DNA of 64,000 nt from a virus (lineage: Duplodnaviria; Heunggongvirae; Uroviricota; Caudoviricetes), in the IMG/VR virus record IMGVR_UViG_3300020048_000080. One strand, 5' to 3'. The notes under the pieces are model-generated. The model had not been told where the DNA came from and ran no database searches. It saw only the letters and a list, made by a program, of their open reading frames with translations. Below are positions 62,222 through 62,360 of the stretch, piece by piece (the first letter of the stretch is position 1; every line of letters starts with the position of its first letter). A program made the translations under genes and the position numbers.

Positions 62222-62360
62222 GGTTGATATAGTTTAAATGTAGTAACCCTACATAGAGGATAAAACACCTAGTGTTCACCACTTAATGACGAAAGCAGGT
62301 CGTAGTCATACTTACGATAGATTTATCTACTATACCAGTTCGATTCTGGTTATCAACCCA
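62222..62360 (+). ncRNA. tRNA-like element: perfect 7-bp acceptor pairing (gttgata/tatcaac) and a canonical T-arm (accag-ttcgatt-ctggt) enclosing a roughly 100-nt non-canonical insert
   Basis: The 3' end, T-arm, acceptor strand then 'c-caa', is spaced exactly as in the neighbouring tRNAs. The 5' side has no canonical D-arm or anticodon arm. Confidence 0.3.

Follow-up and report, generated by a model that had tools for sequence, protein, structure and literature searches.

A probable degenerate tRNA copy at the head of a tRNA-Leu array in a giant phage, downstream of a putative leucine-rich attenuator

We analyzed a 138-nucleotide (nt) element resembling a transfer RNA (tRNA) gene at positions 62222-62359 of a 64,000-nt stretch of the IMG/VR virus record IMGVR_UViG_3300020048_000080 (hereafter, the window), which is a piece of a giant phage whose host probably belongs to the Bacteroidota. 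The element most likely has an ordinary explanation: a tRNA copy, degenerate and enlarged, within a phage tRNA array that evolves fast. On balance, its features suggest a tRNA-derived pseudogene or recombination product that is specific to one lineage and unable to decode. The leucine-rich control region upstream is more interesting than the element itself and may be the real prize of the locus.

Intact ends and rejected identities

The element combines the ends of a tRNA with an enlarged interior that lacks canonical D and anticodon arms. The original prediction described a perfect 7-bp acceptor complement; the helix proved to be even longer, the core GTTGATA/TATCAAC (7 bp) being extended by a G:C pair to 8 bp, all Watson-Crick, between GGTTGATA (62222-62229) and TATCAACC (62351-62358). 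The textbook T arm that had been claimed was likewise found: ACCAG-TTCGATT-CTGGT, with a loop fitting TTCRANY, directly abuts the 3' acceptor strand without a gap. In all five true tRNA genes that follow, ...AAT stands before the gene and CA(A/T) comes after position 73. If C62358 is taken as position 73, the element has the leader AAAT and the trailer CAAAAAT, the same pattern as in its five neighbors, which bears out the earlier remark that its 3' tail (CAAAA after the mature end) is that of the neighboring tRNAs. In this register, G62222 pairs with C62358 as an encoded G-1:C73 pair. G-1:C73 is the main identity mark of tRNA-His, and the element shares with tRNA-His both this pair and the 8-bp acceptor helix, with flanks that place its ends exactly there. 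It differs from tRNA-His in having a long variable hairpin and neither a canonical D arm nor a GUG anticodon loop; no loop in the fold or in the ARAGORN drawings presents GUG.

The element is the first member of the tRNA-Leu cluster, lying 6 nt upstream of the first of the five tRNA-Leu genes. A loose motif scan for a T arm combined with any perfect 7-mer acceptor complement 60-220 nt upstream found this site alone in the real window, compared with 0.14 sites per simulated 64-kb window; taken alone, the bare motif is only mildly significant. A chance origin is nevertheless negligible because the helix has 8 bp, the element lies on the same strand as the array, the gap to the next tRNA is 6 nt and the flanks resemble those of its neighbors. 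The minimum-free-energy fold contains both terminal helices (z = -2.26; 6 of 200 shuffles fold as well). An independent Logan assembly (run SRR7760390) was 100% identical over 6.5 kb including the element, which is therefore not a one-off assembly artefact.

As had been noted before, no D arm or anticodon arm is present at the usual spacing: the element lacks a cloverleaf above threshold, a canonical D arm and a 7-nt anticodon loop with U33. ARAGORN left it uncalled at default thresholds with default settings and with the -i, -io, -mt and -m options, and Rfam returned no tRNA, tRNA-Sec, transfer-messenger RNA (tmRNA), intron or ribozyme either at the gathering threshold or at E <= 10. Relaxed thresholds produced nothing but weak, mutually inconsistent ARAGORN calls, among them a tRNA-Met(CAT) whose anticodon stem would be interrupted by a 58-nt "intron" and competing predictions for the opposite strand. 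An intron-containing, permuted or tmRNA-like tRNA, for which ARAGORN with intron and tmRNA options had been proposed as the check, is thus unsupported. Group I ribozymes in tRNA anticodon loops usually exceed 200 nt. Here the excess sequence amounts to just ~49 nt, no Rfam ribozyme family matched at E <= 10, and ARAGORN -i and -io were negative, none of which fits a group I intron.

A miniature tmRNA, a permuted tRNA and a tRNA-Sec-like RNA are all scarcely credible identities for the element. An acceptor stem and T arm around a large insert, with a long helix under the T arm in the minimum-free-energy fold, recall the topology of tmRNA, and the 8/5 helix lengths are reminiscent of bacterial tRNA-Sec. 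However, ARAGORN -m reported no tmRNA even at the relaxed -ps80 threshold, Rfam gave no match to tmRNA or tRNA-Sec at E <= 10, and positions 3:70 form a U-A pair, not the G-U pair of alanine identity. The element contains no plausible tag reading frame with a hydrophobic C-terminal tail, its 138 nt fall far below known tmRNA sizes, and no UCA stands in a 7-nt loop after U33. On these grounds, we rejected both the tmRNA and the tRNA-Sec identities.

An attachment (attP-like) site, or a captured copy of the 3' end of a host tRNA used for integration, is very unlikely. The 3' ends of tRNAs are classical integration sites, and the element has a complete one. However, the 20-mer GTTCGATTCTGGTTATCAAC, which covers the T loop and the 3' acceptor strand, had no match in a set comprising one genome for each of 185,579 bacterial and archaeal species, in what was an exact-match test only; a host-tRNA copy or an attachment site, the latter having been suggested in the original prediction, is therefore unsupported. 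No integrase was seen among the annotated neighboring genes, and the element sits in a tRNA operon internal to a giant phage that has relatives on contigs of up to 501 kb.

We could not assign a parent tRNA. Local alignments of the element to 171 distinct phage tRNAs barely beat those of shuffled queries. The best of them, for example that to tRNA-Thr(GGU), owe most of their score to the 15-nt T arm and elsewhere do little or no better than shuffled queries. Allowing for C-to-U changes, the first 27 nt of the element are similar to the generic tRNA start UAGCUCAGUUGGUAGAGC, a similarity that lacks statistical support.

The degenerate interior and its possible origins

The interior between the 5' acceptor strand and the T arm measures 103-104 nt. 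Its folding energy was -16.6 kcal/mol, compared with -15.7 +/- 3.1 kcal/mol in shuffles (z = -0.29; 67 of 200 shuffles as stable), and it thus gives no thermodynamic sign of evolved structure beyond the two terminal helices.

We removed every possible internal segment and reran ARAGORN at the default threshold. A total of 140 variants were called as tRNAs, nearly all of them with a cut of ~45-60 nt running from 62233-62241 to 62281-62297. Productive deletions were confined to the D region (62233-62297), with none in the anticodon loop. The called variants shared a core consisting of the acceptor stem, a short D stem, the anticodon-like hairpin at 62300-62317, the variable hairpin TAGA-TTTA-TCTA and the T arm. 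Their anticodon arm was read in three incompatible ways, as AGU with a mismatched stem, as a four-base CAUA in an 8-nt loop and as UAC, to which the covariance-model alignment described below added a fourth, imperfect register. The hairpin at 62300-62317 can be drawn with 5 bp and an 8-nt loop or with 6 bp (five Watson-Crick and one G-U) and a 6-nt loop, and no register yields the canonical 7-nt loop. Without positions 62238-62286, the element is a marginal tRNA with an out-of-register anticodon arm.

A custom covariance model built from 23 class-II tRNA-Leu genes of this phage group gave a local match to the element at 62286-62351 (model positions 7-77, from the D region to the T arm; 12.3 bits, E ~0.02), compared with 59-82 bits for the five true tRNAs. 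The match starts exactly where the deletable segment ends. Since ~55 nt of the interior can be assigned to a degenerate tRNA body, the excess is therefore ~49 nt. The earlier description of a roughly 100-nt internal insert holds in that the interior is enlarged (104 nt), and fails in that the insert is not a clean one. The cleanest description of the element is that of a tRNA-derived gene with ~49 extra nt in the D region (62238-62286) and a degenerate anticodon arm.

Such a layout could also belong to a functional tRNA whose ~49-nt D-region intervening sequence is cut out by proteins, such as an endonuclease acting with the phage RNA ligase, a reading that we consider doubtful. It is favored by the finding that one contiguous deletion (62238-62286, bounded by TTAA) gives a class-II-like tRNA that ARAGORN can call, by the start of the covariance-model match at the right edge of the same segment, by the perfect stems and by the RNA ligase gene at 50566-51573. 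However, the anticodon stem of the restored molecule contains a mismatch and its anticodon is ambiguous (AGU, the 4-nt CAUA or UAC), ARAGORN -i was negative at the default threshold, Rfam detected neither a group I intron nor a ribozyme, the element showed no bulge-helix-bulge motif, and it is a singleton. D-loop splicing is not known from bacteria or phages.

Intervening-sequence removal would make the element a relative of the "enigmatic introns" of Lak megaphages, in which "pseudo tRNAs substantially larger than expected" with inserts of 79-114 nt at position 37/38 have been reported (Devoto et al. 2019, PMC6784885). Much as in the present case, with its probable Bacteroidota host, those are giant phages with a GC content of ~26% that infect Bacteroidota, their overlong tRNA genes are missed by standard bacterial finders, and the inserts have no Rfam match and contain acceptor/T-arm helices with degenerate middles (PMC6784885). 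The Lak inserts differ in occupying the canonical 37/38 position of otherwise good tRNAs, which score 26-60 bits once the insert is removed, and in being conserved, identical across cohorts (PMC6784885). None of this holds here: the D region is where the extra sequence sits, its removal leaves a poor tRNA, and only one lineage carries the element. Because the element fails on insert position, restored-tRNA quality and conservation, we treat the functional readings, this one and a tRNA mimic, as rivals, each of them improbable.

We fetched syntenic loci from IMG/VR and metagenomes by means of the 19-nt upstream terminator hairpin, and further contigs by means of homologues of the SPFH protein encoded in the window. 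No homologue of the element was found in the phage collection (blastn), in IMG/VR (exact-pattern scans) or in the 58 fetched loci (blastn and nhmmer; individual loci are referred to by L numbers). The sole other copy was the 100% identical one from the second assembly of the same phage. The contigs retrieved through SPFH homologues at 81-86% identity lacked the element, and among exact-protein look-ups of neighboring genes, one returned the same phage and the HNH protein was not on record.

What follows the terminator at this site varies widely among the relatives. Intact genes were found in six loci, namely tRNA-Leu(AAG) in L033 and L057 and tRNA-Leu(UAA) in L010, L015, L022 and L041. In L048, the 5' half of a tRNA-Leu(AAG) (14429-14473) runs into an open reading frame (ORF), and in L043 and L044 a 37-nt remnant keeps just the two ends of a tRNA-Leu(UAA) (L043 15377-15413). 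L003, L013 and L053 carry an unrelated 107-nt degenerate class-II cloverleaf (L003 16956-17062) that ARAGORN does not call and that has an 8-nt "anticodon" loop, AAAGAGAG, and a 22-nt A-rich variable loop. In five further loci (L014, L016, L017, L032 and L046), a protein gene or ORF follows directly. The closest relative at the locus, L043, is ~97% identical to the window from the promoter-like box through the leader and terminator, and the similarity is lost entirely 11 nt before the element.

This tRNA debris at the same site, the similarity breakpoint 11 nt upstream and the HNH genes within arrays point to rapid, recombination-driven remodeling of the tRNA arrays, of which the element looks like one product. 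Phage tRNA clusters with pseudogenes and fragments shaped by homing endonucleases are known, as in the tRNA region of T4 with SegB. The array resembles such T4-type clusters in its free-standing HNH gene, its mosaic make-up, and the breakpoints and truncated or chimeric tRNAs seen in relatives. The element differs from T4-type fragments in that it is no simple 5' or 3' fragment: its two ends are both retained and pair perfectly, with the enlarged interior between them.

A tRNA-derived pseudogene or recombination remnant is thus the best supported of the origins raised by the original prediction: the element has tRNA ends and a weak match to the tRNA-Leu model, has lost the decoding elements, and lacks conservation among relatives, which carry tRNA debris at the same site. 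It would have arisen through the fast, recombination-driven turnover of tRNA arrays, to which homing endonucleases probably contributed. Given its location after the leader terminator and before the first tRNA-Leu gene, it would be expected to be co-transcribed with the Leu tRNAs on read-through of that terminator. RNase P, 3' trimming enzymes and the CCA-adding enzyme mainly recognize the acceptor/T-arm helix. Since these determinants sit in an intact helix, the element would probably be excised as a ~137-nt RNA, which would not be used on the ribosome.

Several points weigh against simple degeneration. Both helices of the element are entirely Watson-Crick, whereas the acceptor stems of its functional neighbors carry G-U pairs and a mismatch; undamaged helices are unlike those of a long-decaying pseudogene and imply that the element is young or that its ends are under selection. 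The G-1:C73 extension has a chance expectation of a few percent in a genome this AT-rich, L003 has an unrelated degenerate tRNA-like gene in the corresponding place, which could point to a role tied to position, and the window encodes an RNA ligase. Oversized tRNA genes with conserved inserts of 79-114 nt have, moreover, been reported in Lak megaphages (PMC6784885).

Some of the same features suit a functional, non-decoding tRNA mimic, whose tRNA-His-type G-1:C73 helix would undergo processing and might be charged or bound by tRNA enzymes. Such a mimic could serve as a decoy against host tRNA-targeting defenses, as a regulator, or as processing "punctuation" that detaches the leader from the first tRNA. 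We regard this as unlikely. The all-Watson-Crick, 8+5-bp coaxial helix with G-1:C73 and agreeing flanks would fit it, as would the position of the element as the first cistron after a putatively regulated terminator. Further points in its favor are the distinct tRNA-like gene that L003 carries at this position, with its cloverleaf fold and 8-nt "anticodon" loop, and the other oversized tRNA-like genes in huge-phage arrays (L002 2617-2754 and L008 1849-1993). Against it, neither conservation nor covariation was found, the interior is thermodynamically like shuffles, most relatives have no such element at the site, no loop carries a GUG anticodon, and a single coincidental G-C extension is too common to carry the claim. 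A precedent for a functional pseudo-tRNA is the tRNA-Other of Bacillus cereus, which is similar in being a tRNA-like gene predicted to be non-functional in translation, and which differs in having genetic support for a regulatory role, whereas the window element is unconserved (PMC3399842).

Taken together, a working tRNA mimic made only on read-through of the putative Leu attenuator, or a tRNA from which a D-region insert is removed with the aid of a ligase, has little probability. The mimic may be cut by RNase P and 3' enzymes and recognized through its G-1:C73 helix or its odd anticodon-like loop by a tRNA enzyme of the host or the phage, and it might be a decoy for a tRNA-cleaving defense. 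The insert version would be a splicing site new to bacteria and phages.

An 8-nt anticodon loop was also considered as a common trait of first-position tRNAs and was rejected, as the L033 gene is a normal tRNA-Leu(AAG) after register correction.

Other unusual tRNA-like genes were observed in the related loci. Chimeric tRNAs with repeated T arms occur in L033 (~6000-6200, minus strand) and L016 (378-486), and L043 (~15686-15745) has a 54-nt D-armless mini-tRNA with an AAG anticodon. The oversized genes in L002 (138 nt; LR756501, a 735-kb phage) and L008 (145 nt) have a good acceptor helix and T arm and share ATTTGATATTC in their interiors; that of L002 also shows a canonical D arm, and its anticodon-like stem is interrupted by a long insert. 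ARAGORN also called class-I-length tRNA-Leu genes of 74-77 nt with a short variable region, which is unusual for bacterial-type tRNA-Leu, in L015 (2660-2977) and L003 (17501-17574). With introns allowed, it called a suppressor-type tRNA (anticodon TTA) in L007 (7606-8043) with a 354-nt insert at position 40 that may be a group I intron.

The leucine-rich leader upstream of the array

Upstream of the element, a promoter-like box, a short leucine-rich ORF and an intrinsic terminator lie in succession (Table 1). We compared this region (62041-62200 in the window) with the Leu-type leaders of L003, L010, L014, L016, L017, L032, L033, L041, L043, L046 and L048. ACTATATA motifs similar to the promoter-like box precede the leaders in other loci. 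Leucine makes up 27-34% of the leader peptides, compared with 8.3% in the ORFs of the window; the leader ORF of the window has the Leu codons TTA, CTC, CTA, TTG, TTA, CTA and TTG, which, taken together, can be read by the anticodons of the array.

The leader also contains GGACTGAG, a copy of the 3' arm of the terminator. The RNAalifold consensus fold shows a long-range helix with C-G to U-A covariation in addition to the terminator, and GGACTGAG is sequestered in it by the Leu-codon region through two helices. ACUGAG can pair with CUCAGU, in the 5' arm of the terminator, in 12 of 12 sequences, with invariant columns that hold no informative variation. GGACTGAG and CCTCAGTC are candidate pairing partners that may control read-through. 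The terminator stem is kept by compensatory changes, and the same hairpin follows both Leu-type and Asn-type leaders in many phage contigs. The conserved AGTTCTTTGA downstream of the terminator could be a weak internal promoter.

Considered as a whole, the leader ORF, terminator and duplicated arm look like a leader-peptide transcription attenuator for the phage tRNA-Leu array. The arrangement resembles the trp, leu, his and pheST attenuators in its short ORF rich in cognate codons, its intrinsic terminator, its potential for alternative pairing with the 5' arm of the terminator and, in the consensus fold, the sequestration of the candidate antiterminator segment by the control-codon region. 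It differs from these classical attenuators in that the controlled genes would be phage tRNA genes, not biosynthetic or synthetase genes. A literature search found no description of leader-peptide attenuation of phage tRNA genes.

A second leader family (MTTINLNMNMNTLTVVNNT...; MTTINLNMNMNTLTVVNNTLCIRPCEGF...) is rich in asparagine, not leucine. It was found in L001, L006, L007, L008, L020, L025, L026, L027, L030, L035, L037, L039 and L040, with the same CCTCAGTCAAAAACTGAGG terminator hairpin, and tRNA-Asn(GUU) genes follow in every locus seen, the leaders lying ~170 nt upstream of the first tRNA-Asn. Its candidate antiterminator helix, GAGGGUUUUG/CAAAACCCUC, has 10 bp, is 97.5% paired and shows one compensatory change (L007). 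The comparison covers two families only, Asn is enriched in both, and the reading frame is not strictly conserved in three lineages.

Table 1. Features of the leader, the tRNA-like element and the tRNA-Leu array in the window
Feature	Position	Strand	Basis or remark
Promoter-like AATACTATATAATAAC	62041-62056	+	Identical in window and L043; putative function
Leu-rich leader ORF MKTYNNINLRLNLLLQNERTETIMLL then stop, 26 codons	62057-62137	+	Translation; conserved in 12 lineages
GGACTGAG, copy of terminator 3' arm, candidate antiterminator strand	62112-62119	+	RNAalifold helices P2 and P3
Intrinsic terminator CCTCAGT-CAAAA-ACTGAGG then T run	62162-62192	+	Terminator scan
tRNA-like element, whole	62222-62359	+	138 nt
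5' acceptor strand GGTTGATA	62222-62229	+	Readable as G-1 plus positions 1-7
Excess D-region sequence, ~49 nt, TTAA on both sides	62238-62286	+	Deletion scan; covariance-model match starts at 62286
Hairpin ATGTAG-TAACC-CTACAT inside D-region excess	62238-62254	+	Sequence
Anticodon-like hairpin TCGTA-GTCATACT-TACGA	62300-62317	+	ARAGORN on deletion variants; covariance-model alignment
Class-II-type variable-arm hairpin TAGA-TTTA-TCTA	62318-62329	+	ARAGORN drawings; tRNA-Leu model variable-arm alignment
T arm ACCAG-TTCGATT-CTGGT	62334-62350	+	Sequence, fold, covariance-model alignment
3' acceptor strand TATCAAC then C (pairs with first G)	62351-62358	+	Trailer CAAAAAT
tRNA-Leu(UAA), first true tRNA	62366-62451	+	ARAGORN; Rfam 53.4 bits; custom model R1 75.4 bits
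tRNA-Leu(AAG)	62461-62544	+	ARAGORN, Rfam, custom model
Free-standing HNH homing-endonuclease gene, between second and third tRNA	62591-63304	+	PHROGs HNH families, E = 6e-33; two HNH stretches
tRNA-Leu(UAG), tRNA-Leu(UAA), tRNA-Leu(CAA)	63307-63571	+	ARAGORN, Rfam, custom model

Genome context and implications

The window has a GC content of ~25% throughout, and its genes include those for an NAD-dependent DNA ligase, an RNA ligase, ClpP, a PhoU-like protein, an SPFH/flotillin protein and a histidine phosphatase, a mixture of phage-type and host-derived functions. Close homologues of the SPFH protein (~45, at 79-87% identity) come from AT-rich contigs as long as 501 kb, and the next-best matches of the protein (56-61%) are from Flavobacteriales and Bacteroidia. 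At the DNA level, weak matches to the 636-735-kb "huge phage" genomes LR756501-LR756504 were obtained. The intergenic TATATCTTTG boxes of the window fit the -7 promoter motif of Bacteroidota; Bacteroidota-type TAnnTTTG boxes are at 61102, 61802 and 63664, with none directly before the element, and a sigma-70 promoter scan showed no enrichment. The assignment to a giant phage with a probable Bacteroidota host is based on this gene content, the SPFH relatives and the huge-phage DNA matches, and the promoter boxes are in keeping with it.

Relatives also conserve the RNA ligase gene (PF09414 plus a PHA02142 OB domain), which in the window is located 11 kb upstream of the tRNA array and has a bearing on tRNA repair or possible splicing. 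Split release-factor-like genes (a 50-amino-acid PCRF fragment and a 134-amino-acid RF-1 domain) stand upstream of the SPFH gene in the related phages L046, L048, L051 and L055, and the arrays of L051, L053 and L057 have IS605-type TnpB genes nearby.

ARAGORN and Rfam identified five tRNA genes in the window, all tRNA-Leu, starting at 62366, 62461, 63307, 63396 and 63488. Together they read all six Leu codons, with an A34 (AAG) species among them. Those at 63307-63390 and 63396-63479 have an enlarged D loop, CAACTGGAGTGAGAC, and an anticodon starting at position 38, a type also present in L033 and L043. HNH endonuclease genes occur inside the arrays of the window (62591-63304), L003 (17732-18640) and L033 (~6910-6200, minus strand), and before each of them stands a conserved TTTTATATATA...AAAAA motif resembling a phage-specific promoter. 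A conserved unit follows the arrays at 63664-63735 in the window, ~18770-18830 in L003 and ~15035-15100 in L048; it consists of a TATATCTTTG promoter box, AAGATTGGTGGTCAGCCCC(A/G)AAAACGG and a terminator hairpin, and could be a small RNA of ~50-60 nt.

Close relatives alternate at this one site between intact genes, half genes, remnants reduced to the ends and bloated copies, which indicates that giant-phage tRNA arrays are rebuilt fast. Such copies escape standard tRNA finders, which affects the tRNA counts reported for huge phages. If the perfect helices of the element reflect selection, giant phages would make tRNA-shaped RNAs that undergo tRNA-like processing and have another job. If the Leu and Asn leaders are ribosome-mediated attenuators, these phages would sense the decoding capacity for a single amino acid and transcribe the matching tRNA genes. 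This would constitute a feedback loop on tRNA supply, of which the literature searched holds no description.

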